Counted from the first letter of the stretch, positions 16,543-56,155 are shown. The stretch: DNA of 64,000 nucleotides from Gammaproteobacteria bacterium (GCA_965198875.1 CBDAPU010000001.1:1840167-1904166), one strand, 5' to 3'. A program made the numbers and translations. Notes: generated by a model not told the origin, from the letters alone.

Positions 16543-17424
16543 ATGAGCATAGCCGCTAAAGACAACACGCACTTCGATAATTCACTTAATGAGGCCATCG
16601 TCCGCGTTGATGCCGAGCATTATGCGGGCCGGCAATGCGCCCACTTCCAATGCAAACAGATTGAATTGCCCGGTGGTTTGATCATTTACGACATCATCAT
16701 CGACCCGGTGATCATAAAACGCCATGCCAACCATATTGTTGAAGATTCCGTGCATGATTATTTTCTCTCCACGCTGCTGGAAGGCACGGCACACATTGAA
16801 CAGGCGGGCAGAAAACACACCTTAAAGCGGGGCGATCTGGCCCTCATCGCCAGTGGCTTGCCCTACACCACGGAATATGAAGAGCCCAGTCGCCGCCTGA
16901 TAGTGCGCATTCCCAATCAGGTGTTCAGGGAGCGGCTGATTCATAGTGAGCAGATAGTGATAACCGGTACATTGCCCAGAGATGGTCTGGGCAGGATTGT
17001 GAATGAGCTGTTGAAGTCGGTGGCCTTTGAGGCTTCGGCCTTACCGTCGACCGATCAGTACACGCTGGTGCAAAGCCTGCTGGAATTAACGGCTGCCTTG
17101 ACCCGCTCATCATTGAAGCTGGTTCATCCTGCGCCCAGACACGCTGATCTGTTGAAGCGCATTCTCAATTATCTGGAAGCGCATTTTATGGACAGCGATC
17201 TCAATCCGGGCAAGATCGCTGCCGCTCACGGGATATCCACCCGTTACCTGCACAGCCTGTTCAGGCAATCCGGCACGACCGTGTTCAAATGGCTCTGGGA
17301 GCGGCGTCTTAAAGCAACGCGAAGCGAGGGGTTTAGCGCCCCCGCCCATTTCAGCCGCACCTTTCGTAAGCGCTTTGGGATCACGCCCACCCAATTAAGG
17401 GCCCGCACCGTCAACACGCATTGA
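16543..17424 (+). CDS. AraC family transcriptional regulator (FeaR-like ligand domain); second HTH appears shortened
   Basis: Cupin-like N-domain; IAAAHGISTRYLHSLF...GFSAPAHFSRTFRKRFGITP. Confidence 0.85.
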   Translation: MSIAAKDNTHFDNSLNEAIVRVDAEHYAGRQCAHFQCKQIELPGGLIIYDIIIDPVIIKRHANHIVEDSVHDYFLSTLLEGTAHIEQAGRKHTLKRGDLALIASGLPYTTEYEEPSRRLIVRIPNQVFRERLIHSEQIVITGTLPRDGLGRIVNELLKSVAFEASALPSTDQYTLVQSLLELTAALTRSSLKLVHPAPRHADLLKRILNYLEAHFMDSDLNPGKIAAAHGISTRYLHSLFRQSGTTVFKWLWERRLKATRSEGFSAPAHFSRTFRKRFGITPTQLRARTVNTH

Positions 17425-17623
17425 TTCTTCTCAAGTGAATTGGCTTCTTTTCATTGCCCATCATCTCATCTCCCGGCCAATGATTTTCATGCGCTTCCAG
17501 TCAATACCTTTGGCGTTAAAAGACAAGACAGATCGCCATCCGGCTACTATCATCTATACATGAACAAGGGGCGATTGCCCGCCCTTACAGACCATCCCGT
17601 GAACACATCGGAGAAGCCATAAA

Positions 17624-18712
17624 ATGAACACACCAGTCACCCCCAAAGTCGGGGTTATTTTCAAATCCTACGAGCCCTTATCCGCCATGCAACGCTACGC
17701 CCGCCAGGCCGAGGCGGTCAACATGACCGGCGGCTTCTGGGTCGCCGAGGCCTATCACTGGTTTCGCCAGTATGGCCTCGAGGCCCGCGGTTGTTTCACC
17801 ACCCTGGCGGCGATCAGCATGGCCACTGATACCATCCCCATTGGCCTTGGGATCACCTCGCCCTATATGCGTCATCCCACCATACAGGGCTCCGAAGCGG
17901 CCGCCATCGATGAGTTATGCGGCGGGCGTTTTATCATGGGTCTTGGTGTGGGCAAGGTCGGCATTGAATATCTGGAATACGACATTGATGTGATGAAACC
18001 GGTGCCTGTCCATGCCGAGTCCATGGACATCATGCGTAGAATTTTCAGTGGTGAGGCGTATCGCTATCAGGGTAAATTCTATGAATCCACCATGCCCGCC
18101 TATGATCGGGCGGCCGATGGCCTGCGTACCGACATTCCCATTTATGTGGGCGCCACCGGGCCCTTTATGCAAAAGCTCAGTGGTCGGGCAAGTGACGGCA
18201 TGTTACTGGCCGGGTTGACGTCACCGGCCTTTGTCAAGTATGCCCGCAAGAACATGAATGCCGGCGCCGAGAAGGCGGGGCGCAGCCTGCCCGCTGATTT
18301 TCCCGTAGGCGGGGTGATACTTTGCGCCTGCGCCAGGCAGGGTGATAAAGCCCGTGACGCCACCCGCTCTTACACTGGCACCTACATCGTCAACAAGATC
18401 CGCAACATCAAAAATGACGTCATCCTCGCCGGCTCCGGCTTGCCCGACTCCGCCTGGGCGCCGTTTCGAGCAGCGATCGAGGCGGGTACTCAGGATAACG
18501 TCACCCATCTGGTCACTGATGAGATGATGCGTAAGTTTACCGTCATCTCCGGCACGCCGGAGGAGTGTCTTGAGATCACCCAGGAGCTGATCGATGCCGG
18601 GCTGAACCTGCCGCTGCTGGAAGTGGTGGGCGCCAGCGAGGAAGACAACCTGGAGACCATCCGCCTGATGGGTGAAGAAGTGACGCCCCATCTTAAACCC
18701 GCCACCGTGTGA
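17624..18712 (+). CDS. LLM-class (luciferase-like/Mer-like) oxidoreductase, possibly F420-dependent
   Basis: WVAEAYH, IPIGLGITSPYMRHP, GRFIMGLGVG, IPIYVGATGP; fbiC in the same cluster. Confidence 0.85.
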   Translation: MNTPVTPKVGVIFKSYEPLSAMQRYARQAEAVNMTGGFWVAEAYHWFRQYGLEARGCFTTLAAISMATDTIPIGLGITSPYMRHPTIQGSEAAAIDELCGGRFIMGLGVGKVGIEYLEYDIDVMKPVPVHAESMDIMRRIFSGEAYRYQGKFYESTMPAYDRAADGLRTDIPIYVGATGPFMQKLSGRASDGMLLAGLTSPAFVKYARKNMNAGAEKAGRSLPADFPVGGVILCACARQGDKARDATRSYTGTYIVNKIRNIKNDVILAGSGLPDSAWAPFRAAIEAGTQDNVTHLVTDEMMRKFTVISGTPEECLEITQELIDAGLNLPLLEVVGASEEDNLETIRLMGEEVTPHLKPATV

Positions 18713-18724
18713 GGAACGAAAACC

Positions 18725-19672
18725 ATGAAATTAGCCACCTTTAAGATAAACGGGCAGGCTGCGCCCACCATCGGCGGCCTGGTTGCTGAGACCTACATCG
18801 ACCTGCACGGCTTATCGGGCGGTGCGTTGCCGAATGCAATGTCGGCCTTTTTGAGCGCTGGCGAGCAGGACCGGGCGAGGGACCTGCTGGCCGATGCGAA
18901 AGCCGCACTTCAGGGGCGGGAGCCCGCCTCGCTTGAGGCCGACGGCAGGCGTTACGCCTACCATGCCGATGAGATTGAACTCATGGCGCCAGTGCCGATG
19001 CCGGGCAAGATCATCCACACCGCCTGTAACTTTGACGCCCACCTGGATGAGCTCACCACCTGGAAAGACCCGGAGTGGGAGTCGCACAACTGGGGCGATT
19101 TTCATTTTGAACACCCCACCGGCTTTTTGCAGGCGCCGTCTTCCGTTTGCGCCCACAATGCTGGTGTGGCGGTGCCGAAATTCACCAGACAACTCGATTA
19201 TGAAATCGAAATTGCCATCGTGATCGGCAGGGAGGCGTATGAGGTCAGCGTTGATGAGGCGCCTCACTACGTGGCCGGCTATACGATCTTCAACGATCTC
19301 TCGGCGCGGGATATTCAGGGGCGCGAGCATTCGAACAAGGTGATCCTGATGGGCAAGAGCTTTAAGAACTCCTGTCCTCTGGGGCCCTGGTTGATCACGC
19401 CGGATGAGTTATCCGATCCGCATGATCTGGCCATGCGGCTCAAGGTGAATGGCGAGCTGCGCCAGGACTCCAATACGAAGATGATGCATTACAAAACCGC
19501 CGAGCTGGTGTCCTGGTGGTCATTGATGGGGCTGCAACCCGGCGATGTGATCACCAGCGGCAGCCCGCCCGGCGTCATCGCCGGTATGGAAAACCCGCGC
19601 TGGTTGCAAGCGGGCGATGTCATCGAGGCCAATGTGGCGGAGCTGGGTACGCTGGTGACGAGGATTGTGTAG
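18725..19672 (+). CDS. Fumarylacetoacetate hydrolase family protein
   Basis: LDYEIEIAIVIG, GYTIFNDLSARDIQ, GKSF..CPLGPW, PGDVITSGSPPG. Confidence 0.92.
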   Translation: MKLATFKINGQAAPTIGGLVAETYIDLHGLSGGALPNAMSAFLSAGEQDRARDLLADAKAALQGREPASLEADGRRYAYHADEIELMAPVPMPGKIIHTACNFDAHLDELTTWKDPEWESHNWGDFHFEHPTGFLQAPSSVCAHNAGVAVPKFTRQLDYEIEIAIVIGREAYEVSVDEAPHYVAGYTIFNDLSARDIQGREHSNKVILMGKSFKNSCPLGPWLITPDELSDPHDLAMRLKVNGELRQDSNTKMMHYKTAELVSWWSLMGLQPGDVITSGSPPGVIAGMENPRWLQAGDVIEANVAELGTLVTRIV

Positions 19673-19673
19673 G
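19617..19673 (+). repeat. 57-bp direct repeat copy 1 (3' end of FAH gene)
   Basis: ATGTCATCGAGGCCAATGTGGCGGAGCTGGGTACGCTGGTGACGAGGATTGTGTAGG; copy 2 at 21499-21555. Confidence 0.95.
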
Positions 19674-19717
19674 GGGTAGATAGGGTGCTCAGGTTAAAAC
19701 CAGAGGAAATACTACTA

Positions 19718-20484
19718 ATGAGCTATGAAAACCTGAATTTGAAAAAACCAATAGAATCCGAAGACTATGAAGAATGCTCGGATTTCGTCATAAGTTCTAT
19801 TGAGGGCATTATGCAAAATGCTATGGATAGCGGGGGGAACAGGATTGTCATTAACACGAATCTCAAATACGGCATCCCAATGGAAAATATAAATAAAATT
19901 GCCGGGCCTTTTGTCGAGGCATGGGTATATGAGATATTTACAGGGTGTCTTGAAGATAAAAGTAATAAATATCAACTGATTAATGTTGAAGCTGGTGAAC
20001 GTCTGAATATGGCAGACGTCATTTTGCAGTTTAAGAAAACCAGAAAAAGAAATTCCAGCGTCACTGGCCATGTTGATGTTAAGGCCACTTCAAAGGACAT
20101 TGAGAATAGTGGAAAGTCTCCAAATATTACTTCATTCGCTCGTATCCGCTCGGCCTATGTGACTGATCCGGATTATATATTCATCATCTTATCTATTAAA
20201 CACAGAGTATTCAGCACCAGGGATAATGCAACTGCAATGATGATGGGCGTTATGGAAGTAGTCGACTTAATGCTTATGATCTGAAGTACTTATCCGATTT
20301 CGATATTAACTACAATCCTGCATTGGGAACCGGGCAAATTCAAGTACGTGATATTCATTATATTTCAGTACAAAAAAGGAGTGCCTGGGAGTTTTGCAGA
20401 CTACTCGATAGAAAGTTTATTGCATCAAAAAAAGGTTATGAGCAATGGGCTGAATATGCAGAACAAAATGGGTGGATTAAGTAA
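19718..20484 (+). CDS. Type II restriction endonuclease, HpaI-like (GTTAAC), -1 frameshift at ~20267
   Basis: RIVINTNLK.G.P.ENINKIAGP..EAW...VDVKATS.DI..SGKSPNITSF.RIR; after restoring one T it continues FNAYDLKY..YNPALGTGQIQ, matching R.HpaI as recalled. Confidence 0.85.
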
Positions 20485-21411
20485 ATGAAAAAAATCGACC
20501 TGCGCTGTGGTGATGCACTGGAATTGTTTCAGGAAATAGAAGGCGAATCAGTTGATGTGGTTATTGCGGACCCGCCATATAATCTGGGAAAGGACTATGG
20601 CAACAACCATGACTCAAAAGCGTTTGAAGATTATTTGAAGTTCACGAGAAAATGGCTGTCCGAAGCCAAAAGAACATTAAAACCCACTGGTACTATATAT
20701 GTCTTTATGGGCGTCAGGTTTATATCATATCTCTATGACATTCTCGATAAAGAACTGGGCATGTTCTTTAACAGCTGGATAGTATGGCACTACACGCAGG
20801 GATTGGGGAAAACAAGGGGGTTCTCACCCAGGCATGATGATATTTTAATGTTTACAAAATCAGATAAGTTTATATTTAACCTGGATGACGTTCGTGTCCC
20901 GCAGAAATACTACCGCGCAAGGAATAACATGCGTGGCGCTAATCCCGGTGATGTCTGGAAATTTTCTCATGTTCATTACTGTAATTCTAACAGGCAAAAT
21001 CATCCTACTCAAAAACCGGAAGGTCTGATAGAAAGAATGGCATTGGCATCCAGCAATGAGGGCGGAGTGGTGCTTGATCCTTTTTCTGGCAGTGGGACAA
21101 CTTTGAGGGTATGCCAACAAGCCAAACGAATGGCTATAGGGTTTGAACTGAACCCCACTTATATGGAAATAACCCGTGCACGCCTTTCTGACAGGTTTAT
21201 TGGATTTGACAGTATTGACTCAAGAATGGAAAGGGTGCCAAACGACTTACGAAAACCTGAGATCAGAGATGAATATCTGGAAAATCATGTTAAATGGTTC
21301 TTGCACAATCATGAAAATGCCTTGGAAGTATTCCAGAAAGCTGTCAAGGAGAAATATGGCATTGACGTTGATACTGCTTCGATGAGTTCCGGTCAGATAG
21401 AGATGTTGTAG
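20485..21411 (+). CDS. Beta-class N6-adenine DNA methyltransferase, M.HpaI-like
   Basis: DPPYNLGKDYG, YTQGLGKTRGFSPRHDDILMF, HPTQKPE, LDPFSGSGTT. Confidence 0.9.
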   Translation: MKKIDLRCGDALELFQEIEGESVDVVIADPPYNLGKDYGNNHDSKAFEDYLKFTRKWLSEAKRTLKPTGTIYVFMGVRFISYLYDILDKELGMFFNSWIVWHYTQGLGKTRGFSPRHDDILMFTKSDKFIFNLDDVRVPQKYYRARNNMRGANPGDVWKFSHVHYCNSNRQNHPTQKPEGLIERMALASSNEGGVVLDPFSGSGTTLRVCQQAKRMAIGFELNPTYMEITRARLSDRFIGFDSIDSRMERVPNDLRKPEIRDEYLENHVKWFLHNHENALEVFQKAVKEKYGIDVDTASMSSGQIEML

Positions 21412-21498
21412 TTTATATGCTTGAGCAGGCTGATTTTTGAAATACGGATAGACTTGTGCATAGGTGGGAATTACATCCTTGATTTGTCAGATGAAAGA

Positions 21499-21555
21499 AT
21501 GTCATCGAGGCCAATGTGGCGGAGCTCGGCACGCTGGTGACGAGGATTGTGTAGG
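21499..21555 (+). repeat. 57-bp direct repeat copy 2 (orphaned FAH 3' end)
   Basis: Identical to 19617-19673 except CTG>CTC and GGT>GGC. Confidence 0.95.
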
Positions 21556-21651
21556 AAACTTTCATTAAGGTAAAAGTCGGACAGCCTTGTCAGGCTTTAC
21601 CCAACTTGAGATGATCAGATACTTCTTTTAAGTCAATTTTGAAACAGCTTT

Positions 21652-23439
21652 ATGCCAATGAACAACACAGATTGCAAAAAATGGACGTTCTTTGAATATC
21701 AAGAGGGAGAAACGCGACGGGATTCAGGCAGTGAGAAAAACTTCAGGGATTTGGATATACACGCCAGCCTGATCAGGGAATTGATCCAGAACTCTCTGGA
21801 TGCTGTCAGTGATAGCAGTAAGCCTGTTGAAATTAAAATACGCTTTACGGAGTCAGGCAAAAACGACTGTGCGCGGTATTTTCAAGATCTGGAACCGCAC
21901 TATAAGGCGAGCTTCGGGCAACCTCTGAAAATAGCTGAGAAGCTAAGGTTTCTAGTTTTAGAGGACTTTAATACAACGGGTCTTAAGGGAAAGAAACAAG
22001 ATGACTTTTTCCTGAAAGACAATATAAGAAGTGACAGTAACCGTTCCAGCGGCGGCAGTCATGGCATCGGTAAAATTGTGTTTTATCGGGCAAGCCGGAT
22101 CCGTACTTTTGTTGCTTTTTCTGTCTATGACAACGGCAGCGTCTTCAAAGCATGCTGTGACTTTAAGACGCATGAGATTGCAGGAACAGCGTTTAAGGAA
22201 GATGGGCGACTGGCACTGTGTCCTGAAAACGATGCCGGTTTTATGCAGACGCTTTTTGTCAGAACCAGGCAACAAAAAGGATTATCTATTGCCATTCCCT
22301 TGCCCGATACAGAGTTAAGCACGAAAGGTTTGGAACAGGCCATTACCAATGAGTATTACTACCCCTTGATCAATGAAAAATTGGTTGTTGCGCTTGGAGA
22401 TACCAAGAAAGCTATAAAAATTGACTCAAACTATATCCTTGAACAGGAAACAGCAAAGCGAGAATTAATATCCCATTACCACGCTTTATCGTCGGAAAAA
22501 TATCTACAGGTAAGCATTGGGGAAGCCTATACAAGCCCGGGCAGGGACGAACCTCTAAACCCGCAACAAAAACAAGACATCATCTCAAGGCTTGAAAATG
22601 ATGAGGAAGGGGTCGTCATTCGATTTGCGCTTTCCGTAAAACTTAAAAGTCGGCAGCGCGAAGAGGGCTATTTGGACCTGGCACTGTCCAGGAAAAAGGA
22701 CGAGAAAGATAAAGACAGCCATTTCGATTTTTGGCGGGAAAATTTACTGATCAAAGACGCTGCCGGGCGGAACAAAGGCTCATCAGACTACAACGCCATC
22801 GTACTCATCCACGGCCAAGACAATGCGTTGAGCCATCTGCTGCGCGAACTGGAAAACCCCTCTCATACCCGGTGGGAATACCGTAATCCAAACGATGAAG
22901 TTAAAAATCGGTACCGGAATATACTGCAATTAGTCCCCTTTATTACCCAACTGCCGAGCAAGGTTATACGTTCCGTTATGCAGGCGGGGGTTACTCTGGA
23001 CAGTAATTTCTTTAGCGATTTCTTTCCGGATACATCCGCCGACGGAAGAGCATCAGATCAGGGTCAGCCCTCCGGCAATACGGACGATAAAACGCCTGCC
23101 GATATTAAGGCCAACTCCAACTTTTATTATCGCGAGAATCGGAAAAACAACGGCTTTATTTTATCCCTGTCCGATAAAGGCAAGCGGAACGATTTTGCCA
23201 AAATAAGCATCACCATTGCCTACGGGACGAATAGAGGTAATTCATTCAAAAACTACGATACCCGGGATTTTGACTTGCGGGAAAATATAAAAATAGACCT
23301 CAAAGGCGGCCAGCAAATAGAAAAGCAGGCAAATCGCCTGCTGTGTCACATTAAGGATAAAGATGATTTCAAGGTGACCCTATCGGGTTTTGATCCAGAC
23401 CGGGAATTGAAGATAGACGCTAAAGAGGAAGCCGAATAA
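21652..23439 (+). CDS. GHKL (HATPase/MORC-like) ATPase domain protein, function unknown
   Basis: RELIQNSLDA (motif I), LEDFNTTGL (motif II variant), GGSHGIGK (motif III); AT-rich. Confidence 0.8.
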   Translation: MPMNNTDCKKWTFFEYQEGETRRDSGSEKNFRDLDIHASLIRELIQNSLDAVSDSSKPVEIKIRFTESGKNDCARYFQDLEPHYKASFGQPLKIAEKLRFLVLEDFNTTGLKGKKQDDFFLKDNIRSDSNRSSGGSHGIGKIVFYRASRIRTFVAFSVYDNGSVFKACCDFKTHEIAGTAFKEDGRLALCPENDAGFMQTLFVRTRQQKGLSIAIPLPDTELSTKGLEQAITNEYYYPLINEKLVVALGDTKKAIKIDSNYILEQETAKRELISHYHALSSEKYLQVSIGEAYTSPGRDEPLNPQQKQDIISRLENDEEGVVIRFALSVKLKSRQREEGYLDLALSRKKDEKDKDSHFDFWRENLLIKDAAGRNKGSSDYNAIVLIHGQDNALSHLLRELENPSHTRWEYRNPNDEVKNRYRNILQLVPFITQLPSKVIRSVMQAGVTLDSNFFSDFFPDTSADGRASDQGQPSGNTDDKTPADIKANSNFYYRENRKNNGFILSLSDKGKRNDFAKISITIAYGTNRGNSFKNYDTRDFDLRENIKIDLKGGQQIEKQANRLLCHIKDKDDFKVTLSGFDPDRELKIDAKEEAE

Positions 23440-24158
23440 TGAAGCGGACAATGGCGCCCGAGCAGAGGCGAAAATTTTTGCAAAAGAATATTGTTCTAAA
23501 CATAGAGGAAGTGAATGACCAACTATCGGTTAAGGTGCTGTTACATAATGTTCGCCAGCAAAATTATCCGGGCAATTCAAACATCATTCTGGAAGCCTAT
23601 AACAGAGTCGATATTGAACGGCTGCAACTGGGAAATGTGGCGGATTATCAAGAAGAAGAGCGGTCTCATAAGCTGCCTTTTGCGACACCGCTCAGATCGA
23701 AAATAAATTTCAGGTTAAAGATTATCGACCCGCACAGCTTCAAGCTATTGGGGTATGCCGAAAACTTAAAAGAAGAAAAGTACGCCACATCAATGCTGGA
23801 GATTGATACCGATAATGAGCGTGTCAAAAACATCTATAAAATCGATCTCGATAATCTGCAACATCCCGTTTTCCATCTTAACCCGCAACTGAAACCCGTT
23901 GCCGAGCAATTAAAGCCGCTGCTGGCTGAAATGGCCTTGAAAGACATATTGACCCACCTGCTCGCATCAGATCAAGATGAAGCCCTGGAAGACAACAAAT
24001 GGTTTCATTTTGCAAACAGGCTTCATCCCTACGATGAGACTGAAAAACAGCATGATGATGGCTACAACTCAGACTGGATAAACCGGGTTTTATGTGCATT
24101 TGCGGAGAAAAACAAACTGATAAAAACGCTGATCAGGGAGTACCGGGCGGATGGTTAA
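23439..24158 (+). CDS. Hypothetical protein, translationally coupled to the GHKL gene
   Basis: TAATG stop/start overlap; 239-aa ORF with the same AT-rich composition. Confidence 0.75.
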   Translation: MKRTMAPEQRRKFLQKNIVLNIEEVNDQLSVKVLLHNVRQQNYPGNSNIILEAYNRVDIERLQLGNVADYQEEERSHKLPFATPLRSKINFRLKIIDPHSFKLLGYAENLKEEKYATSMLEIDTDNERVKNIYKIDLDNLQHPVFHLNPQLKPVAEQLKPLLAEMALKDILTHLLASDQDEALEDNKWFHFANRLHPYDETEKQHDDGYNSDWINRVLCAFAEKNKLIKTLIREYRADG

Positions 24159-24861
24159 ATTAAGAAAGCTGACAGCGAAAGAAAGTGTGCAGTTTCAGAG
24201 TCTGTGTAAAGAGGATGCGCTGTTAGCCTGCAATCTGGATGCGGGGGATTTTGCAAGCGGGGAGATTTTAGCCGACATAGAAATTGACCCGGACAGGGAA
24301 TTTGACAATAAACTGCAACTGGGCGCTTATCTTTATGAGAAATTAGGCGGCGTATCATCGGTGGACAATGAGGTCTGGCATTTTCTGGTCATTGTCTACC
24401 ACAGGCAATTGCTGAAGAACGGGAAAATAGGGCAGACTGATCGATTTTATATTGACCCGCAAAAGCCATATTACCCTTTTACGCACCTGTTAAAACCGGT
24501 ATTTGATGTATACCGTTTTTATCACGACAAACAAACGCCGATCGACTTTTTGTTATTGAACCCGGTGAATGAATCCGGGCGGCTGTTTTTAGAAACCGTA
24601 AAGCGTCAGGACATAATGAAAAATGAAAATTTTATTCAGGCGAGCAGAAGCCTTTTTTACGATGAGGAGAATAAAAAAATAAAAACAGGCATAGAAGACG
24701 ACTTTCTAAGACTTATCGCTTTGCTGAAACAATATGAAAGAACCTATGATTTATACAGCATGCCCGCCGAGCGGATTCTAAAAAATCTCATTGCCAGGCA
24801 CGATCAGTTTCATAAATATAATCTTAATCCAACCTCGGGCAATACAGAAATTTCCGATTGA
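24151..24861 (+). CDS. Hypothetical protein, third gene of the GHKL module
   Basis: Start overlaps previous gene by 8 nt; 236 aa; W..L...Y..QL, HLL, QYERTYDLYSM segments look conserved. Confidence 0.75.
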   Translation: MVKLRKLTAKESVQFQSLCKEDALLACNLDAGDFASGEILADIEIDPDREFDNKLQLGAYLYEKLGGVSSVDNEVWHFLVIVYHRQLLKNGKIGQTDRFYIDPQKPYYPFTHLLKPVFDVYRFYHDKQTPIDFLLLNPVNESGRLFLETVKRQDIMKNENFIQASRSLFYDEENKKIKTGIEDDFLRLIALLKQYERTYDLYSMPAERILKNLIARHDQFHKYNLNPTSGNTEISD

Positions 24862-24869
24862 AGGCGAAG

Positions 24870-28549: not shown

Positions 28550-28605
28550 TTTATGGTGTTGATGAACAGGCAAATTTAATTTTTCAGATATAAGGAGGGA
28601 TTGGC

Positions 28606-29445
28606 ATGATCATGCTAAAAGACATCTGGCCGTGGCCGGTTGATAAGCAGAAAGAATACAAAGTCCATCTGGCACAAAAATCCGGCAGAACCGGGTTTGA
28701 ACCCCTGGATGTCTGGGTAGAAAGCGCAGATAAATGGCGAGCATGTCAGGAAGACACATTTTCAAAGGATGTCTTTAATCGCCCGTATATTTTTGCACTA
28801 ATGGACTGTTACCATCAAGCCAATGCCGGGCTGTGGCTGTTCGGCGGCATATTCAAGGTGCTGCACCGAACTCACAATCCAGGCAAGGTCCACTACGATG
28901 TCGAACTGACCGAATTTGGGCAAGACTTCATTGGCCGTCTGAAAATTCACTCACCTTATAAGTCCCGCCAGACCTACTTAAAGATGGAAGGGCTATACGA
29001 TGGGTTTGAAGTCAGGGAAATATTGCCTGAGCGCTATTCAGGCCAAACATTCCCCGGGTTTAGAAAAATCAATCTACCGTTCGCTGAGCTGGCAGGGCTG
29101 ATTAAAAAAGACAAACTTGACTGGAAAGCGGCGCTGGAAAACGTGAAGGGGATCTACCTGCTGACTGATAAAAAGTCCAATAAACGCTACGTCGGCGCTG
29201 CGTATGGTGAGGATGGGGTCTGGAAGCGCTGGGGGGAGTATGCCAACGGAGACGGCGGCGGCAATAAAGGAATGAAAGCGCTGCTTAAAGACAAAGACCC
29301 GAATTATTTTCGGGAGAATTTTCAAATTGCCCTGCTGGAGCACTGGCCCTTCAATACCTCAGATGATGAGATTATAGCCCGAGAAAACCATTGGAAGGAG
29401 GTGCTCAGAAGCCGTGTCGAGGAGGGCGGGCTGAATCGAAACTAG
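28606..29445 (+). CDS. GIY-YIG nuclease family protein
   Basis: KGIYLLTD..KRYVGAAYG..GVWKRW.EY...IIARENHWK...LNRN; AT-richer than flanks. Confidence 0.85.
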   Translation: MIMLKDIWPWPVDKQKEYKVHLAQKSGRTGFEPLDVWVESADKWRACQEDTFSKDVFNRPYIFALMDCYHQANAGLWLFGGIFKVLHRTHNPGKVHYDVELTEFGQDFIGRLKIHSPYKSRQTYLKMEGLYDGFEVREILPERYSGQTFPGFRKINLPFAELAGLIKKDKLDWKAALENVKGIYLLTDKKSNKRYVGAAYGEDGVWKRWGEYANGDGGGNKGMKALLKDKDPNYFRENFQIALLEHWPFNTSDDEIIARENHWKEVLRSRVEEGGLNRN

Positions 29446-29456
29446 CGACCCCAACC

Positions 29457-30326
29457 ATGCCACTTCCCCATGAACGGTTTGCCTTCTCCGCCATGCCGGA
29501 GCGGGCGCCGATTACATTTCCCCATGGTGAGAGGCTGGCCGTGTACCTCATCGTCAATATCGAGGAGTGGGACATTGAAAAACCCCTTGCCAGGGAATAC
29601 GTTACCTCGCCTGCCGGTGTTAAGACAGTGCCGAACATTCCCAACTGGGCCTGGCATGAATACGGCATGCGGGTGGGCATCTGGCGGATTATGGACGCCC
29701 TGGAGAAGCGCAGGATAAAAGCCAGCGCTGCGCTCAATGCCCGAGTGTGTGAAGGGGCGGGCGAGCCGGTCGCCCGGGCGATGCTGCAGGCCGGCTGGCA
29801 TTTCATGGGACATGGCTACGCCCAGGCGGCCATGCACGTTGTGGAAGATCAGCAGGCCGTGATCCAGCAGTCCTTTTCGGTATTAAAACAGTACACTGGC
29901 AAGGCGCCCAAAGGCTGGCTGGGGCCCGGCCTGCATGAAACCCTGGACACGCTCGATCATCTGGCGCAAACGGGTTTTAAGTATGTCTGCGACTGGCCTA
30001 TGGATGAGCACCCGGTAGCGATGAACACCCGCACCGGGACGATGATGGCGATGCCTTATTCCCTTGAGCTCAGCGACTTGCCTTTGATGGTCGTGCATCA
30101 GCATGAATCCGAGGTCTGGTTAAAGCGGGCCATGGCGCAGTTTGACCGGCTCTATGAAGAAGGGGCGAGACAACCCCGGGTGATGTCCCTGAGTGTGCAT
30201 CCCTATATCATGGGCGTGCCCCACAGAATACAATACTTTGAAGCCGCCTATGATTACATGATGGCAAAAAATGATGTGTGGTTCGCCACTGCCGATGAGT
30301 TATACGACTGGTTTAGTCAGCAGTGA
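29457..30326 (+). CDS. Polysaccharide deacetylase family (PuuE/allantoinase-like) amidohydrolase
   Basis: VNIEEW, NWAWHEYGMRVGIWR, MGHG, GWLGPG, DW..DEHP, LSVHPYIMG.PHR. Confidence 0.85.
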   Translation: MPLPHERFAFSAMPERAPITFPHGERLAVYLIVNIEEWDIEKPLAREYVTSPAGVKTVPNIPNWAWHEYGMRVGIWRIMDALEKRRIKASAALNARVCEGAGEPVARAMLQAGWHFMGHGYAQAAMHVVEDQQAVIQQSFSVLKQYTGKAPKGWLGPGLHETLDTLDHLAQTGFKYVCDWPMDEHPVAMNTRTGTMMAMPYSLELSDLPLMVVHQHESEVWLKRAMAQFDRLYEEGARQPRVMSLSVHPYIMGVPHRIQYFEAAYDYMMAKNDVWFATADELYDWFSQQ

Positions 30327-30491
30327 TGAAAGTTCTCTAAAATAACCGCAAAATGAGACGTTTTCGCCCAGGCAGGGCCGTAGCCTTTCGATGATCGGAG
30401 CTTGCATGAAAGTAAATAAGCATTTGAGAGAAGGCGAGGGCGCAGCATAGGCGGAACATAACCATGTTGATGTAACAAGTGAGTGAAGATA

Positions 30492-31691
30492 ATGAACAAA
30501 ACCCTGTCCCCGGATCAGATCTGGACCAGTGCGTTAAACCGAAGGGATGAGATCCTGTCCGGTTTTGATCGCACAATACCGGTACGTTTTTATGACACCA
30601 CATTGCGAGATGGCGAGCAGTCCGTTGGCGTGTGCTTCACGCCGGAGGAGAAATTCAACATCGCCTGCAAGCTGAGCGAGCTGGGCGTTGGCAGGATTGA
30701 GTCCGGTTTTCCACGGGTCTCCGCAGATGACACAGAGGCGGTAAAACGGATCCTGAGTGCCGGACTGGATGCGGAGATCTGGGGTTTCTCACGGGCAGTG
30801 CAGGCCGACATCGACGCCCATATTGAACTGGGTACGGAGCAGGTGTTGATCGAGATCGCCACCAGCGACTTGAAGATGGACGCTTATGGTTTCACTCGGG
30901 ATAAAGTCCTGCAACGGGTGACGGAGGCTATTCAGCACGCCAAAGACAAGGGCGTAAAAACCGTGAACTTTTTTGCCGTGGACTCAACACGCAGCGACCT
31001 GGCGTTCCTGAAAGACGTGTATCTCACGGCGCTTGAACAGGGCGCCGATGAGGTCTCCGTAGTGGATACCATTGGCGTGTGCTCGCCGGAGGCCGTGCAG
31101 TGGTTGATCGCTGAAGTGGCCGGTTGGGTGGGGCCGAACATCCCCATCCACTGGCACGGGCACAATGACTTTGGTCTGGCCACCGCATCTGCAGTGGCGG
31201 CCGTCAGGGGCGGCGCCCGCTGGATCCAGGGCACCATCAACGGCATGGGTGAGCGTGCCGGCAATGCCGACATCTGCGAGGTGGCGCTGGCCCTGCAATG
31301 CCTGTACGACATGCCCGTTGAGTTGGACTTGAGCTATGCACGCGAGGTCTCAAAGCTGGTGCAAGAGGCGGGCGGCTACACCGTTGATGGCTGGAAGCCG
31401 GTCGTCGGCGAGTTCCTCTATACCAGAGAGAGCGGCGCCGTGGCCAATCAGTTTCACATGCCCTCGGCCATCGAGCCCTATTCCGCCGACATCGTACAGG
31501 CCGAGCGCAAAATCGTGCTGGGCAAGAAGAGCGGTCTGTCCAATATCAAACTCAAGGGTGAGGAATTAGGGCTCACTATCCCGGCGGACAAATGCGCCGA
31601 GGTGCTCGCCGAGGTCAAAGCGATGGGCACGAGACATGCGCGCCTTCTCAGCGATGAGGAGTTCAGGCATATCGTCCAGCAGGTCGTTTAA
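30492..31691 (+). CDS. DRE-TIM Claisen condensing enzyme (homocitrate/isopropylmalate synthase-like, no LeuA regulatory domain)
   Basis: DTTLRDGEQS, HGHNDFG, NGMGERAGNA, IVLGKKSG. Confidence 0.88.
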   Translation: MNKTLSPDQIWTSALNRRDEILSGFDRTIPVRFYDTTLRDGEQSVGVCFTPEEKFNIACKLSELGVGRIESGFPRVSADDTEAVKRILSAGLDAEIWGFSRAVQADIDAHIELGTEQVLIEIATSDLKMDAYGFTRDKVLQRVTEAIQHAKDKGVKTVNFFAVDSTRSDLAFLKDVYLTALEQGADEVSVVDTIGVCSPEAVQWLIAEVAGWVGPNIPIHWHGHNDFGLATASAVAAVRGGARWIQGTINGMGERAGNADICEVALALQCLYDMPVELDLSYAREVSKLVQEAGGYTVDGWKPVVGEFLYTRESGAVANQFHMPSAIEPYSADIVQAERKIVLGKKSGLSNIKLKGEELGLTIPADKCAEVLAEVKAMGTRHARLLSDEEFRHIVQQVV

Positions 31692-31814: not shown

Positions 31815-32783
31815 ATGAAAGCGATCAAGCGGGTCTGTGTGGTTGGCGCCGGCGCCATCGGCAGTTTGCTGGCCGGTCATCTGGGCGGGGTAGTGGAGAC
31901 GACCGTGTTGACACGAAGAGAGGCCCATGCAAAAGCCTTAAATGAACATGGCCTGAGCGTGAGCGGCAAGTCTGAGCGGCACGTTCGTCTTAGCGCCTCT
32001 GTTGAGCCGGCGGCCTTGGGTGATATGGATTTAGTCATTATCGCCACCAAGGCCTTGGCGGTTGAGGCCAGCGCCAAAACCATCGCCGGCCATTTCCCCG
32101 GCGCCCATCTGCTGATGATGCAAAACGGCCTGGGTTGTGAGGAGGTGCTTGGCCGTTACGGGGATTGGCCGATCATCTCCGCCGTCACCTTTATGAGCGG
32201 CACCAGGCGCTCCGATACCCATGTGGAATATGAGTTGGATACCGCCACCTGGATGGGCCCCTGGGCCGGGCGCCATGCAACGTATGAATACGTTAAGCAA
32301 GTGGCGGCGTTGCTGAGCAGGGCGGGATTGAAAGCGGAGGCGTATGAAGATTTGTTACCACAGCAATGGTCAAAACTGATCTTCAACTCCGCCGTCAACA
32401 GCATTGCCGCCCTTACCGATCTTCCTCACGTCAAAGCATATGCGATACAGGATAAGCTCGAAGACCTGGGGCATCTGGTCTATGCCATGATGGATGAGGC
32501 GAAGGGTATTGCCAAGGCGCGCGGCGTCACTCTGGCGGACGACCCCTGGGAGATGAATTGTCGCGCCGTGGGGCAGGGGATAACCGGAGGTGAAGACTAC
32601 GCCCACATCCCGTCCATGCTCGATGATGTGCGTAATCAGCGGTTAACCGAAATCGACTGGATAACCGGTGCGATAGTACGGGAGGCGAGGAAGGCGGGAC
32701 TGCCCGCCCCGTATCACGAGACCATGTATCGACTGGTGAAGGCCCATGAGTCCTCATGGGCACAAAAAGATATGCGCTGCTGA
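31815..32783 (+). CDS. Ketopantoate reductase (PanE/ApbA) family oxidoreductase 1
   Basis: VVGAGAIG, TK, MQNGLG, WSKLIFN, PSMLDD..RLTEID. Confidence 0.9.
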   Translation: MKAIKRVCVVGAGAIGSLLAGHLGGVVETTVLTRREAHAKALNEHGLSVSGKSERHVRLSASVEPAALGDMDLVIIATKALAVEASAKTIAGHFPGAHLLMMQNGLGCEEVLGRYGDWPIISAVTFMSGTRRSDTHVEYELDTATWMGPWAGRHATYEYVKQVAALLSRAGLKAEAYEDLLPQQWSKLIFNSAVNSIAALTDLPHVKAYAIQDKLEDLGHLVYAMMDEAKGIAKARGVTLADDPWEMNCRAVGQGITGGEDYAHIPSMLDDVRNQRLTEIDWITGAIVREARKAGLPAPYHETMYRLVKAHESSWAQKDMRC

Positions 32784-33086
32784 AAAAAAAGCACATGCTG
32801 GTTTAATCAGTGTGTCCTAAGGGATAAGGGAATTATATGCTTAACCATTGCATAATTCTCCAAAGGTTGCTTCTTCCGAATACTCAGAAGGAACACAGCT
32901 CGCCTTGAAACACTACTATTTGTCAGGGAATAGTCCGGTTTGAATATTTGTTTGATATAGTTATGCTTGAGCAGTGACAGGATGAAAATACAAGCATAAT
33001 ACACTATCCGTTTGAAGCGATGAGATATTGCAATTATCTTTTGTTTTGTCGCCAAAAGTAATATTCAGCAATGCCGAAAATAATAT

Positions 33087-33614
33087 CAAAAAGACTTCAA
33101 GGTTCAAGCGATGGACAACTGGAAGCATGGCAAACCATACGCTATGGTTGTTTGCCCTATCTACCAACTGCCAAGTCGTGAAAGTCAGATTTACAAGCAA
33201 GCGTCGACAAGAAATGTTTGCATATTCACATACTCTCACTTATCCCTTTTGGTCAATTATGCACAAGCAGAAGGCCATGAAAAATCTCAAAATCTTTTAC
33301 ATGAGGTGTTTCGGACTATTTCAGCCTTGAACCCTTCAAAAAGTGCAGCCGACTATTGGATGGCCGTCAATAAAACCATATTGAACTTTTCAAAAATCAT
33401 TCAGGATATCTGGAACACTGAAAAAATTGCCGCAACAGAATCAATCGAAGTAGCGAAACGGGAAGGGTTAAAATGCCTGGCAGCAGAGAGGGAAAGGATT
33501 ATGGAAATGAACCATGAGCAAGCACTACAGGAGCTGATTACGATTAACCGGATAGAGGGCAAAATTAAAACCATTAAATCAATCCATGATAATGGACTTT
33601 TCGCCATACAATAG
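33087..33614 (+). pseudogene. 5'-deleted HindIII-family type II restriction endonuclease
   Basis: QKDFKVQAMDNW...YAMVVCPIYQLP..SQIYKQA...NVCIFTYSHL resembles R.HindIII (NQKDFKV..W..YAVL.AP.FQYP..SQIFKQ); in-frame TAA immediately upstream. Confidence 0.75.
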
Positions 33615-33626
33615 AGCGTTCAAGTA

Positions 33627-34433
33627 ATGAAAAAATACATCAACCGGATTATTGAAGGCGATTGTGTTGAGGTTATGAGAAGGTTTGAACCCGACTCAAT
33701 AGACCTGACTGTTACCTCGCCGCCATATGATAATCTAAGGAGTTACAAAGGTTTTGAATTTCCCTTTGAGGCCATTGCCAAAGAGCTCGTTCGGGTGACA
33801 AAAGACGGCGGTATTGTTGTTTGGGTAGTAGCGGATGCGACCATTAACGGCAGCGAAACAGGAACGAGTTTTAGACAAGCCCTTTATTTCCATGAGCTTG
33901 GTCTCAATCTTCACGACACCATGATTTTCCAAAAGACAAACCCCATTCCGCAGATTTATCGCAAACGCTACAACAACATCTTCGAGTACATGTTTGTGTT
34001 TAGCAAAGGAGAGGTTAAAACCCATAACCCCATTAAAGTTGGCTGTCTCCACGCAGGACTTGAGTTAAGTGGTACAACATATAAAAATTATTCAAAGGGA
34101 GATCAGAGGCGTGAGAAGATGGCAAACCCGGTCAAAAAGGAAAAAATCAAAGGCAACATCTGGGAGTATGTGGTTGGCAAAAAGGCGGAAGACCAGGAAG
34201 CAAAAAGACATTCTGCGCCATTCCCCTGCGCTCTTGCCAGAGACCACATCAAGTCATGGACCAATAAGGGCGACATTGTGTTTGATCCCATGTGTGGTAG
34301 TGGGACGACTTGCAAATCTGCCCTCCAGCTAGAAAGAAAATACATCGGCATTGATATAAGTCATGAGTATTGTGAGTTAGCGAGAGAGCGAATCAGCAGG
34401 CATGAACCACAGTCAGCCTTTGACTTTGAATGA
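33627..34433 (+). CDS. Beta-class DNA methyltransferase (N4-C/N6-A)
   Basis: TSPPY, HSAPFP, FDPMCGSGTT, GIDIS. Confidence 0.9.
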   Translation: MKKYINRIIEGDCVEVMRRFEPDSIDLTVTSPPYDNLRSYKGFEFPFEAIAKELVRVTKDGGIVVWVVADATINGSETGTSFRQALYFHELGLNLHDTMIFQKTNPIPQIYRKRYNNIFEYMFVFSKGEVKTHNPIKVGCLHAGLELSGTTYKNYSKGDQRREKMANPVKKEKIKGNIWEYVVGKKAEDQEAKRHSAPFPCALARDHIKSWTNKGDIVFDPMCGSGTTCKSALQLERKYIGIDISHEYCELARERISRHEPQSAFDFE

Positions 34434-35082
34434 TACCGCTCTGATCATGACCATTTGACGCCCAAACAGCATCACTTGATCAAAGGCATTTTCTGCATGC
34501 TAGGTTTAATATTGAATTACCCCGCATGGGCAAAAAGCGGATACAGCAGCCCAAAACCAACCCATATAAAGAATTGCCATGAACATATCATGGAATAAGA
34601 TTTAAAAAGATGATCCACTTGGGGCTAAACAAGCCTTTGAGTATTTCAACGTTACTCGAAATAAACTCATACTCTCAAGGTATTCCGGGGGCCATTCTTA
34701 ACGATGGGTCAAAGAGCTATAAGATTGAAAAGTGGTTTGCCTGTCAGATCGTGCGGTTACTCTGGAGCCGGAAAACTACTCAAATCTGAAATTGCTTGTG
34801 CAGAAAGCAAATAGCTGGGTTGTTTCAGAATTCGATGCAATGTGTAATAAAGTAACGACATCGCTTGAAAAGGAGCCATATAAAAAGTTACTCGATAGAA
34901 ATGGCCTCAATGATAGCAAACCTGATATTAACGAAATCGACCAGCGTAGAAGTTAATATCTAACAGGGCTGAACGCATGGATACAGAATACTTCTAACCC
35001 AAACATGACGAGTTATGAGCGCCATCAAAGCCCATGCCGCCAAGTTTAAGTATATAATTCCCTAAAAAAACAGAGGCCATCA

Positions 35083-36012
35083 ATGAAGGTGTGTATTGTG
35101 GGTTGCGGCGCCATTGGCAGTTTGTACGCCGCACATCTGGCGAAGCTGGATGATGTTGAAGTGTGGGCCTATGATCTCTCCCAAGCGCATGTGGATGCGA
35201 TCAATCAACATGGCCTGCGCCTCACCGGTTTAAGCGATTTTACCGCCCGATTACATGCCCGCACGCATCCGGGTGACATACCGAAATGCGAGCTGGGGAT
35301 CATTGCCACAAAGACCCTGTCTACCCGCCCGGCCATGGCGGCCATAGCGGCGGTATTCAAGGATGGCGCCGTTTGCTCCATACAAAACGGCATCGGCAGT
35401 GAGGAGATCGTGGCCGAATATGCGCCCCGTGTCATTCAGGGGACGATCTTCCCGGCCGGGCACATCACCGCCCCCGGCGTGGTCAACCATGATGCCGGCG
35501 GCAAGACCTGGATCGGCCCTTTCGCCACCCACCCGGCCACCATGGCGGAAGTGAAAAAATTAGCCGACGCCCTCAACCGCAGTGGTCTGGAGTGTCTGGC
35601 GATGGCGGACGCCCGCGGCGCCCAGTGGACCAAGCTGATCTTTAATTCCGCCTCCAATGCGATGGCCGCCTTAACCCGACTGCCCCATGGCGTGGCCTGT
35701 GATCAGGCGGGCGTACGCAAGCTGATGTCGGTACTGGTGGCCGAGGGTGTGGCGGTGGCCGATGCCTTGGGGATCACCTTAGATAGCGATCCGGAGGCAC
35801 TGCTCGATTACGGTCGGGAGAAGGCCTACTACCACCCGCCGAGTATGCTTCAGGATGTGTGGGCGGAACGGCTCACAGAAGTGGACGCGCTGAACGGCGG
35901 TATCGCCGGGCTGGGCAAAGAGCTCGGTGTCCCCTGTCCCATGAATGAGGCCTGTGTGGCCATCATCAAGGGTCTGGAGGCGTCCTGGTCTTTGCAATAC
36001 CCGGAGGGTTAA
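35083..36012 (+). CDS. Ketopantoate reductase (PanE/ApbA) family oxidoreductase 2
   Basis: IVGCGAIG, IQNGIG, WTKLIFN, PSMLQD..RLTEVD. Confidence 0.9.
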   Translation: MKVCIVGCGAIGSLYAAHLAKLDDVEVWAYDLSQAHVDAINQHGLRLTGLSDFTARLHARTHPGDIPKCELGIIATKTLSTRPAMAAIAAVFKDGAVCSIQNGIGSEEIVAEYAPRVIQGTIFPAGHITAPGVVNHDAGGKTWIGPFATHPATMAEVKKLADALNRSGLECLAMADARGAQWTKLIFNSASNAMAALTRLPHGVACDQAGVRKLMSVLVAEGVAVADALGITLDSDPEALLDYGREKAYYHPPSMLQDVWAERLTEVDALNGGIAGLGKELGVPCPMNEACVAIIKGLEASWSLQYPEG

Positions 36013-36102
36013 TCAGAGTGCTCTATAAACCGGCATAATGGTCGCTGATGAAGTCAGCTTCTCCCTGAAATCCATCGATACTTAAATAAAGAGGAAATAA
36101 CC

Positions 36103-37257
36103 ATGACCGATCATACCAATCGTTTTCGCCCAACCCAGGCTGAAATTGACCGCCGTTATACCAACATCCGCGCCGCCATGGCAAAAGCCGGGCTGGATGC
36201 GCTCATCGTCAGCGGCAGTGAATACACCGGTTTTGAAGGGGCGGTACGTTATCTGTGCGGCTTCGTTATTTTGCACCGCTATGCCTATGTCGTGATCCCG
36301 GCCGATGCTGATCCGGTCTGCGTCTTCCCGCGCGAGGCCACCTGGGTTGGCGATCACGCCGCCACCTTCATTGAGAACCGCGAGTTGCCCGCCCATTGCG
36401 GTGAATGGATGGCCGACTATCTAAAAGCCCGGGGCGTTAAAAAGCTGGGAGTCTATGGCTTGCAGTACATCATCAACGTGCGCGACTACTCGGCGTTGGC
36501 GGCCCGGGATTTTGACATCATCGACTTTGAAACCGAGTTTGACTACGCCCGTGCCCAGAAGAGTGAGGAAGAGCTGGCCTCCGTCAGGCATTCCATGGCC
36601 ATCAACAAACAGGGCGTGCTCGATGTGATCAGGGCCTATGAGCCCGGCAAAACAGAAGCCGAGTTAATGGGTGTTGCCGAGCACACCTTTGCCGCCGCCG
36701 GTTGCGCCCGCAACACCATGGACATGGTGCAGATCGGCGCCAATGGCTCGCTGGCGCCGCAGATGGTCTTCCCCACGAACCGACCGGTTGAGGACTCAGA
36801 CGGGCTCATGTACGGCTTGGAAATATCCGGTGAGGGCGGCCACTGGGTGGAGTTCTCGCGCCCCATGTTTCCCGCTGGCATGGACGCCACCACCACCGAG
36901 ATGATGACGGCCTATCAGGAATTCCATGAGCTGGCCAAGGAGCACATGCGGGCCGGCAACACTGCCGAGGCGGCGGCCACTGCCTGCATGAAACCCATCT
37001 TTGATCGTGGCTATCGCTCCGGCCATGTGTGCGGGCATTCCATCGGCATGACCATGATCGAAATGCCCCGCATCGGCGAGGGCTTTGATTTCGTCTTGCC
37101 GGAGAATATGATCTGCTCCATGCACCCGCACTTTATGAATCAGGAGCGCACGCACTCGTTATATTTTCAGGAAACCTACCGCGTGGGCAAAGACGGCGGC
37201 GAGCCCTTGTCCGGCGTACCGATCAAGGCGTATGAGGGTGGGGAGGGGAGTTTTTAA
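36103..37257 (+). CDS. M24 (creatinase/Xaa-Pro peptidase fold) hydrolase
   Basis: Creatinase-like N-domain, RAQKSEEE, GHSIG, MHPH, QETY. Confidence 0.85.
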   Translation: MTDHTNRFRPTQAEIDRRYTNIRAAMAKAGLDALIVSGSEYTGFEGAVRYLCGFVILHRYAYVVIPADADPVCVFPREATWVGDHAATFIENRELPAHCGEWMADYLKARGVKKLGVYGLQYIINVRDYSALAARDFDIIDFETEFDYARAQKSEEELASVRHSMAINKQGVLDVIRAYEPGKTEAELMGVAEHTFAAAGCARNTMDMVQIGANGSLAPQMVFPTNRPVEDSDGLMYGLEISGEGGHWVEFSRPMFPAGMDATTTEMMTAYQEFHELAKEHMRAGNTAEAAATACMKPIFDRGYRSGHVCGHSIGMTMIEMPRIGEGFDFVLPENMICSMHPHFMNQERTHSLYFQETYRVGKDGGEPLSGVPIKAYEGGEGSF

Positions 37258-45119: not shown

Positions 45120-45127
45120 CAGGGTTT

Positions 45128-56147: not shown

Positions 56148-56155
56148 GTTGCTGT

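Follow-up and report, generated by a model that had tools for sequence, protein, structure and literature searches.

Putative defence cassettes between the genes of a conserved accessory operon in a gammaproteobacterium

Genes and features of the cluster

The subject of this study is a cluster of enzyme genes interrupted by putative defence cassettes in a Gammaproteobacteria bacterium (GCA_965198875.1 CBDAPU010000001.1:1840167-1904166). This 64,000-nt stretch is called the window, positions are counted from its first letter, and the genome is denoted G000. From 16.5 to 37.3 kb, genes occur on the + strand only and GC content alternates sharply. It is 0.574-0.624 in the enzyme genes (the backbone) and 0.387-0.449 in the genes between them (the cargo), with UzuA at 0.492. 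A first-pass annotation had described co-directional GC-rich genes alternating with AT-rich inserts, and the measured values agree. The contrast is exaggerated because backbone and cargo deviate in opposite directions from the genome mean of 0.530 (2.5% and 97.5% percentiles of 1-kb windows, 0.444 and 0.605). The reading that we consider probable is that a conserved accessory operon took up at least four small foreign defence cassettes serially, at three intergenic junctions, by recombination free of integrases and transposases.

Genes and domains were called using Pfam, NCBIfam and PADLOC. The junctions are J1 (between FAH and M20), J2 (between FbiC and the deacetylase) and J3 (between KPR1 and KPR2). 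The features are as follows.

16543..17424, +, AraC/FeaR-family regulator, first gene of the cluster (Pfam AraC_binding_2, 3e-13, and HTH_18); it adjoins the LLM gene in relatives too
17624..18712, +, luciferase-like (F420-type, Mer-like) oxidoreductase, LLM (Pfam Bac_luciferase, 1e-47; 81-86% amino acid identity to relatives)
18725..19672, +, fumarylacetoacetate-hydrolase-family enzyme, FAH, left flank of J1 (Pfam FAA_hydrolase, 2e-63)
19617..19673, +, direct repeat copy 1, comprising the final 56 nt of FAH, stop codon included, and one further nt (57 nt in all; 96% identity to copy 2)
19674..21498, +, type II restriction-modification (R-M) unit, 1825 nt (PADLOC REase_II and MTase_II)
21499..21555, +, direct repeat copy 2, duplicating the 3' end of FAH (57 nt, repeat search)
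21556..24861, +, three-gene cassette after repeat copy 2 (PADLOC candidate PDC-M33)
21652-23439, +, predicted GHKL-type ATPase, 595 aa, PDC-M33A (PADLOC, 4e-25)
23439-24158 and 24151-24861, +, cassette genes 2 and 3, function unassigned (linkage of the three genes is kept in the sister genome)
24870..26144, +, M20 (ArgE/DapE-family) deacylase, right flank of J1 (Pfam and NCBIfam; aligns to relatives from residue 1)
25952..28549, +, FbiC, fused CofG/CofH FO synthase (NCBIfam NF006687, 1129.6 bits, above cut-off)
28606..29445, +, UzuA (Uzume, GIY-YIG), candidate single-gene defence cassette at J2, insert 28550-29456 (PADLOC and Pfam)
29457..30326, +, polysaccharide-deacetylase/PuuE-like hydrolase (Pfam Polysacc_deac_1; 75% amino acid identity to G015 over residues 1-287)
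30483..31691, +, HMGL-like (isopropylmalate/homocitrate-synthase-type) enzyme (Pfam HMGL-like, 1e-66)
31815..32783, +, ketopantoate-reductase-family dehydrogenase 1, KPR1, left flank of J3 (Pfam ApbA and ApbA_C)
32784-32791 and 35064-35070, A-runs flanking the J3 insert
32792..35063, +, decayed HindIII-like R-M insert at J3 (Pfam RE_HindIII, A-runs, inverted repeats)
32827-32851 and 35039-35063, imperfect 25-nt inverted repeats of the J3 insert (84%, repeat search)
33087-33614, +, HindIII-like restriction endonuclease (REase) remnant (Pfam RE_HindIII, 3e-54, profile positions 125-284 of 285 only)
33627-34433, +, J3 methyltransferase (MTase), intact (best PADLOC model an orphan MTase, 7e-78)
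35083..36012, +, ketopantoate-reductase-family dehydrogenase 2, KPR2, right flank of J3 (Pfam ApbA and ApbA_C)
36103..37257, +, M24 (creatinase/prolidase-type) hydrolase, last backbone gene (Pfam Peptidase_M24 and Creatinase_N)

The first-pass annotation was confirmed in part. Its first gene (16543-17424) encodes an AraC-family regulator rather than FAH, which lies at 18725-19672, and the LLM gene had been omitted. Two "spacers" of 156 and 123 nt are ordinary intergenic regions, with medians of 123 and 28 nt in relatives. The tight gene ends that it pointed out are real, with the three-gene cassette ending at 24861 before the M20 start at 24870 and UzuA ending at 29445 before the deacetylase start at 29457. 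It had also seen no integrase or transposase, and no such domain was found in open reading frames (ORFs) of at least 70 aa between 12 and 42 kb. A six-frame search of the whole genome placed Phage_integrase matches only at 364, 393 and 785 kb, and the window covers 1.84-1.90 Mb. The tyrosine recombinases of the genome, two full and one broken, are all distant from the window. The same whole-genome search returned no match for rve or DDE_Tnp_1.

The enzyme backbone

A DNA search of 40 related genomes recovered the full cluster, contiguous and without cargo, in 4/40 (G015, G017, G018 and G034). The full cluster was absent from 36/40, with isolated pieces in some. Backbone genes align essentially end to end with relatives and therefore no enzyme gene is disrupted, as had been claimed.

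A second set of loci was anchored on the M20 protein. It comprised 160 loci, 80 from genome contigs and 80 from metagenome contigs (L016-L175), of which 4 are duplicates with identical FAH plus M20 sequence. The ten backbone proteins were mapped onto these loci, which yielded the junction gap lengths. At J1 the median gap was 37 nt (147 loci); the genes were adjacent in 146/147, and the gap exceeded 500 nt in one, L021 (4394 nt). At J3 the median was 18-28 nt (68 loci), and the one gap above 500 nt, in L065, was 1000 nt and held a D12-class MTase. At J2 the median was 62 nt (38 loci). Here 33 gaps were below 500 nt and five were 2.1-3.8 kb, filled mostly by transport/metabolic genes; a defence candidate was present in 1/38, L016 (Uma2/PDC-S03), and the other four enlarged gaps held transport/metabolic genes. 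Inserts with defence, toxin-antitoxin or transposase genes and a GC content below that of the backbone were found in about 7-8 of the 160 loci (L021, L039, L041, L065, L101, L016, L087 and perhaps L034). In related loci the operon is usually uninterrupted.

The cluster is widespread among uncultured Gammaproteobacteria, where loci L016-L175 contain at least three gene orders. Depending on the lineage, the KPR-KPR-M24 block follows the FAH-M20 block, precedes it or diverges from it, and neither FbiC nor the deacetylase is obligatory across the M20-anchored loci. The backbone is therefore a shuffled accessory unit. Upstream of AraC there was no synteny between G000 and the sister locus L016.

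FbiC probably starts near 26140, within the annotated ORF, as homology to relatives begins at ORF residue 61-79. The LLM oxidoreductase matched NCBIfam F420 LLM families, each time below the family cut-off. A CofD above its family cut-off is encoded elsewhere in the genome (G000:C1:2191139-2192047). With a fused FbiC beside an F420-type LLM, and CofD elsewhere in this gammaproteobacterial genome, the enzyme cluster may depend on deazaflavin.

The R-M unit at J1

The two 57-nt repeats differ at two positions, both synonymous third-codon positions in the FAH frame. The REase gene between them (19718-20284) matched PADLOC REase_II PDLC03492 (8e-69, profile positions 1-181 of 254) and had no Pfam match. 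It is frameshifted by a 1-nt deletion near 20266-20270, and the rest continues out of frame to about 20481. The gene for the N6/N4 MTase (20485-21411; PADLOC MTase_II, 2e-86) is intact. This unit had been called an HpaI-like R-M system; the R-M assignment stands, with a broken REase, and the "HpaI-like" label could not be verified.

Parts of the stretch occur in eight public runs, none of them recorded as RNA; four were compared, including X1, X3 and X4. An independent unitig spans 19617-21526 with 0 differences, in agreement with the frameshifted sequence.

In L021 the J1 junction carries a full-length REase of the same family (258 aa) and an MTase. Beyond them lie an ORF of 132 aa, then a copy (112 nt, 99%) of the 3' end of that locus's own FAH, and then a GmrSD-like gene. 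The direct repeats of both genomes end at the FAH stop +1 nt. DNA identity between G000 and L021 is about 88% in the R-M genes and 72-74% in the backbone. Synonymous divergence (dS) amounts to 0.57-0.66 in the R-M genes, compared with 0.85-1.79 in LLM, FAH and M20. The FAH sequence next to the R-M unit is 63-79% identical between the two, which does not exceed the identity of other backbone parts and thus gives no sign of a flank transferred along with the unit. A tree of FAH plus M20 (FastTree only, 125 rows) places G000 with L016 (support 99) and L021 with L053 (support 100) as sister pairs. Because G000 and L021 are not sisters and J1 is empty in both of their sisters, either two gains or one gain and several losses are required.

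The sister genome of G000 (locus L016, genome handle G423) carries the whole five-gene module elsewhere, after rhodanese-secB-gpsA and before a SpoU-type methylase gene. The gpsA junction is empty in G000. Amino acid identity between the two modules is 89% for the REase, 88% for the MTase, 63% for the GHKL protein, and 69% and 66% for the two downstream genes. The right end of the G423 module retains a relic, about 90 nt long, that is similar to the 5' end of M20. Its MTase-GHKL spacer weakly resembles FAH 3' ends (local score 29 against a null of 21.7 ± 2.4; 3/200 shuffles reach it). These relics imply that the composite once resided at a FAH-M20 junction and later moved with pieces of its flanks. 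The same R-M family also occurs in unrelated contexts in G463 and G019, with no flanking direct repeats around either homolog.

The GHKL cassette at J1

Assignment of the 595-aa protein as a GHKL (Bergerat-fold) ATPase, proposed in the first-pass annotation, is supported by conserved motifs and by the predicted fold. The protein has Bergerat-type motifs (N-box E..N..D, G1 D.G.G and G2 G..G.G), and E43, N47, D50, D105, G110, G135, G138, G140 and K141 are invariant in 28 homologs. Its AlphaFold (AF2) model has a predicted local distance difference test score (pLDDT) of 84.6. Among the Foldseek matches listed were Topo VI-B, Hsp90, ParE and MORC2 (E 5e-10 to 3e-7, TM-score about 0.3). Pfam HATPase_c matched 3/28 homologs, with E 0.11 or above, and a PDB sequence-profile search gave one weak unrelated match.

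Of the PDC-M33 components, M33A was matched. The two downstream genes had no PADLOC model match, yet they are linked to M33A in the sister genome; a protein atlas gave no functional lead for either. A homolog of the GHKL protein occurs in 1/399 other genomes of the class (29% identity); one viral contig (27%) and two plasmids (about 25%) also match, and at these identities no carrier vehicle was identified. The cassette (21396-24881) is single-copy in G000, and its depth relative to the backbone is 4-6-fold in X1 and about 8-fold in X4, where variant letters occur in both. Close copies are therefore present in other, more abundant community genomes.

The inserts at J2 and J3

UzuA matched its PADLOC profile over positions 29-278 of 278 (2e-49) and contains a Pfam GIY-YIG nuclease domain (4e-6). 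This full-length match places it in the Uzume family, with a predicted anti-phage role. A gap of the size of UzuA was present in 0/38 related FbiC-deacetylase loci, a count of gap lengths made without a direct search for UzuA. Two tandem Uma2-family genes at 44532-45700 of the window (- strand) share about 70% protein identity with the Uma2 gene at this junction in the sister (L016:15309-15884).

The J3 insert had been described as a HindIII-like R-M system. The MTase and a remnant of RE_HindIII are present, and the endonuclease is incomplete. It has lost about 130 N-terminal residues, and homologs of 305-310 aa align only from residue 131-136. A complete RE_HindIII endonuclease with a partner MTase was accordingly not found at J3, the endonuclease being truncated. 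The remainder of the insert (34434-35063) had no PADLOC or Pfam match. Of 400 class genomes scored for its origin, 7 besides G000 matched, all short and weak. The A-run at J3 is duplicated around the HindIII-like unit; the uninterrupted KPR1-KPR2 intergenic region of G017 contains a single A-run. Since inverted repeats lie near the ends, albeit imperfect and with the left arm 35 nt inside the insert, a transposon-like origin of this unit is possible.

Both restriction genes of the cluster are inactivated, the first by a frameshift and the second by truncation, and both MTase genes are intact.

Strain variation

Bridging X1 unitigs, at the backbone depth of about 60, cover 24824-30357, 31932-33114 and 33085-37350 and show 0-3 differences. 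In X1 the J1 R-M unit assembles at that depth into one unitig with the two repeats as its ends. This run may be the sample of origin and is therefore not independent support. Strains 95-99% identical are present in X3 and X4, where contigs join 19674 to 21550 with 9 other letters between. These variants lack the first R-M unit and have the GHKL cassette beside FAH. In X4, one contig connects 32815 with 35079 through 146 other letters, a variant without the HindIII-like insert, and a 4-kb contig runs from FbiC through UzuA and the deacetylase to the synthase.

J1 content differs among G000 (R-M unit plus GHKL triplet), L021 (R-M unit, the 132-aa ORF and the GmrSD-like gene) and the X3/X4 strains. 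J2 content is UzuA in G000 versus a major facilitator superfamily (MFS) gene plus Uma2 in its sister L016. The first-pass annotation had proposed an alignment across genomes as a check. In the comparison made here the backbone was conserved and contiguous without cargo in relatives, and junction cargo varied both between lineages and between co-occurring strains.

Low-GC islets in the rest of the genome

Low-GC segments of at least 900 nt were collected from the whole genome, which generated 74 islets with a total of 147 kb. The 20 largest outside the window were searched with PADLOC (E <= 1e-5), and 17/20 matched, including R-M, GmrSD-type, AbiU, Tiamat, PsyrTA and ThsB systems. In some islets the orientation is opposite to that of the genes on both sides. 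Direct repeats (22 nt or longer) flank 5/74 islets and 1/222 random controls, and a CRISPR array accounts for one of the five. Exact 36-38-nt repeats with a period of about 66 nt at G000:C1:811500-812700 look like such an array. At G000:C1:1200889-1203284 an AT-rich MTase islet lies between 130-nt direct repeats (97.7%). At G000:C1:1323212-1326595 a C5-MTase plus REase islet lies between 495-nt direct repeats (97.2%) that copy the 3' part of the neighbouring gene.

Three flagged islets fall in the enzyme cluster. From the genome-wide rate (lambda 0.62) the probability of at least three is 0.025, and from the rate of the 200-kb neighbourhood (lambda 1.45) it is 0.18. Islet density in the cluster is unusual by the first measure and not by the second. 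The suggestion that the operon is a special scaffold for cassettes is not supported, given 74 islets genome-wide and this local density.

Other features of the window

A tail-specific protease at 50098-52249 (- strand) is divided over two overlapping ORFs, one with the N-terminal and PDZ domains and the other with the S41 and C-terminal domains, a split that suggests a frameshift. Gene remnants at 12472-14376 and 47211-47594 comprise a lone phage tail-sheath gene, a 133-aa C5 DNA methylase fragment and a 127-aa histone-deacetylase-family fragment. At 55488-56790 (- strand) a 178-aa ORF with 33.7% GC and no Pfam match lies beside a Peptidase_C39-domain gene and is another small foreign islet. 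The AT-rich stretch 3' of M24 (37.3-39.6 kb) had no PADLOC or Pfam match. A tRNA-anchored island was considered and rejected, as the tRNA-Met 3' end has no second copy in the window. Between 17450 and 37440, scans counted 21 promoter-like and 25 terminator-like sites, against 19.9 and 21.4 expected from shuffled sequence, and were thus uninformative.

Origin of the alternating pattern

The cargo probably came in by at least four events, with junction signatures that differ from insert to insert. Foreign DNA would have entered by transformation or a similar route and would have been joined by illegitimate or short-homology recombination. Insertions between genes, mostly in the direction of the operon, would be the ones to survive, while others would break or silence the operon. 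The tidy alternation would then come from a survival filter rather than from a dedicated cassette-capture machine. Both endonucleases have decayed since, while the methyltransferases were kept.

Several observations weigh against serial uptake of this kind. The entry route and the joining mechanism are inferred rather than observed. The ends of UzuA and of the GHKL cassette show no diagnostic microhomology, the longest shared words being 6-7 nt. The X3/X4 joint, with its 9 extra letters, is not a clean empty site, and the J3 inverted repeats are imperfect (84%) and placed asymmetrically, with the left arm inside the insert. All four cassettes are co-oriented with the operon, which would occur by chance in 1 of 16 cases and would be compatible with selection. 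Finally, the dS gap between R-M genes and backbone is modest, so one old R-M insertion followed by several losses could still account for J1.

Portable homology arms might have contributed at J1. With a FAH 3' end inside the module and an M20 5' end at its tip, host RecA could home the module, without an integrase, to the FAH-M20 junction in any strain with the operon. Such homing would account for the presence of one R-M unit at J1 in two genera that are not sisters, and for the host-like long duplication found in each. We regard it as unlikely.

The first-pass annotation had favoured a dedicated, integron-like platform, in which conserved genes serve as homologous-recombination anchors for the swapping of cassettes that are then expressed from the operon promoter. 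We find this quite unlikely. Cargo does differ between lineages at J1 (G000 and L021) and at J2 (G000 and L016), cassettes are present or absent at the strain level, and all four run with the operon, two of them ending 8-11 nt before the next start. The relocated G423 module, with its M20 5' relic and weak FAH 3' relic, keeps the anchor idea alive, and flank-mediated transfer of defence hotspots has been proposed, in the available part of the paper, by Johnson et al. (PMC10250203). However, a repeat search found no repeat or attC-like site common to the cassette ends (no dedicated attC model was used), there is no integron integrase, and the junction signatures differ from insert to insert. 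The FAH sequence beside the R-M unit is no closer between G000 and L021 than the rest of the backbone, and no flank transferred along with the unit can be seen. Junction inserts are also rare (1/147 loci at J1 and 1/68 at J3), like islets occur all over the genome, including some opposite to both flanking genes, and the R-M family is found in unrelated contexts in G463 and G019.

The cargo, or at least the J1 R-M unit, could instead be ancestral to the clade of G000 and L021, lost in other members by precise excision between the direct repeats and with the repeats homogenised within each genome by gene conversion. Both carriers have the unit at the same site with the same repeat end point, direct repeats favour precise deletion, the flank relics in G423 imply an older composite resident at J1, and an R-M dS of 0.57-0.66 is not small. 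At least 2-3 independent losses would nevertheless be needed in a 10-tip clade. Conversion would have to be continuous, as the repeats are 96-99% alike within each genome while FAH 3' ends are about 63% alike between genomes. The R-M dS is also below that of every backbone gene tested. Ancestry followed by loss is very unlikely on this balance.

An assembly chimera joining contigs of different organisms might be suspected in a sample from a mixed community, where the excess depth of the GHKL cassette in X1 indicates close copies in other genomes, but it is hardly credible given unitigs that bridge the junctions at backbone depth (albeit in X1, possibly the same data), an R-M unit assembled between its two repeats at that depth, and UzuA and the GHKL cassette in the same places in the X3 and X4 variant strains.

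Comparison with known systems

Integrons carry short, co-directional, tightly packed cassettes, some apparently without their own promoter. The G000 cassettes share this packing and direction. They differ in lacking intI, attI and attC, in having resident enzyme genes between the cassettes, and in their heterogeneous junction signatures. No IntI-type tyrosine recombinase lies beside the array, the Phage_integrase matches being confined to the three distant positions. The description as an integron-like array is not supported, as no recombination site is common to the cassettes and each insert has its own junction signature.

Homology-facilitated illegitimate recombination during natural transformation uses a homologous anchor, beside which foreign DNA is inserted at microhomologies without an integrase. 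G000 encodes ComEC and DprA, which would suit such a route; their presence says little because the same families score in control genomes too.

R-M insertion with long target duplication was reportedly noted in earlier H. pylori work. As a class with four criteria it is given in the accessible part of Furuta, Abe and Kobayashi 2010 (PMC2853133). Judged by sequence, the J1 R-M unit fits this class on all four, as stated there. It has R and M homologs, though the R gene is frameshifted. It is 1825 nt long, well within 20 kb, and has no integrase or transposase domain. Its duplication exceeds 30 bp (57 nt at 96%, and 112 nt at 99% in L021). Empty sites exist, FAH and M20 being adjacent in 146/147 loci and the X3/X4 contigs skipping the unit, with 9 extra letters. 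As far as that text describes the class, the likenesses are R and M genes in a low-GC insert below 20 kb without a mobility gene and a bracketing direct repeat of more than 30 bp that is single-copy at empty sites. In its H. influenzae cases, too, there is overlap between the repeat and a host gene's 3' end. The two further G000 islets with 130-nt and 495-nt repeats resemble the same class. Compared with the cases described there, the J1 unit differs in lying inside a conserved operon beside a second defence cassette, in recurring at J1 of a non-sister genus, where the repeat is that genus's own and differs in length, and in having a restriction gene that is already frameshifted.

The locus also resembles the core defence hotspots and islands of Johnson et al. 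2023 (PMC10250203), as presented in the part of that paper available. Low-GC, variable defence content lies between conserved flanks (at J1 in G000, L021 and X3/X4; at J2 in G000 and L016). The hotspots are likewise not bound to one mobile element family, and transfer by flank homology is proposed there. In contrast to the hotspots as reported, the G000 junctions are very short and lie inside one operon, three within 20 kb, and each islet has only 1-5 genes. Occupancy is rare in relatives (1/147 other loci at J1, 1/68 at J3 and 1/38 at J2), whereas the Pseudomonas hotspots are filled in most isolates.

The locus thus combines two known things, R-M insertion with long target duplication and defence hotspots between conserved genes. 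It reveals no new cassette-capture mechanism, and an integron-like one is not supported. Beyond the ordinary are the three occupied junctions in one operon, the recurrence of an R-M unit at one junction in two non-sister genera, and a relocated module with relics of its flanks, in which the PDC-M33 GHKL candidate system moves along with a type II R-M unit. A bacterium almost without integrases and transposases may build its anti-phage repertoire from small cassettes placed between genes, even within an operon, and the locus is a compact record of this; the cassettes vary among co-existing strains and later decay to orphan methyltransferases. It extends R-M mobility of the long-target-duplication type, as that class is set out in the text available, to uncultured marine-type gammaproteobacteria, with three cases in one genome plus one shared with another genus at the same site.

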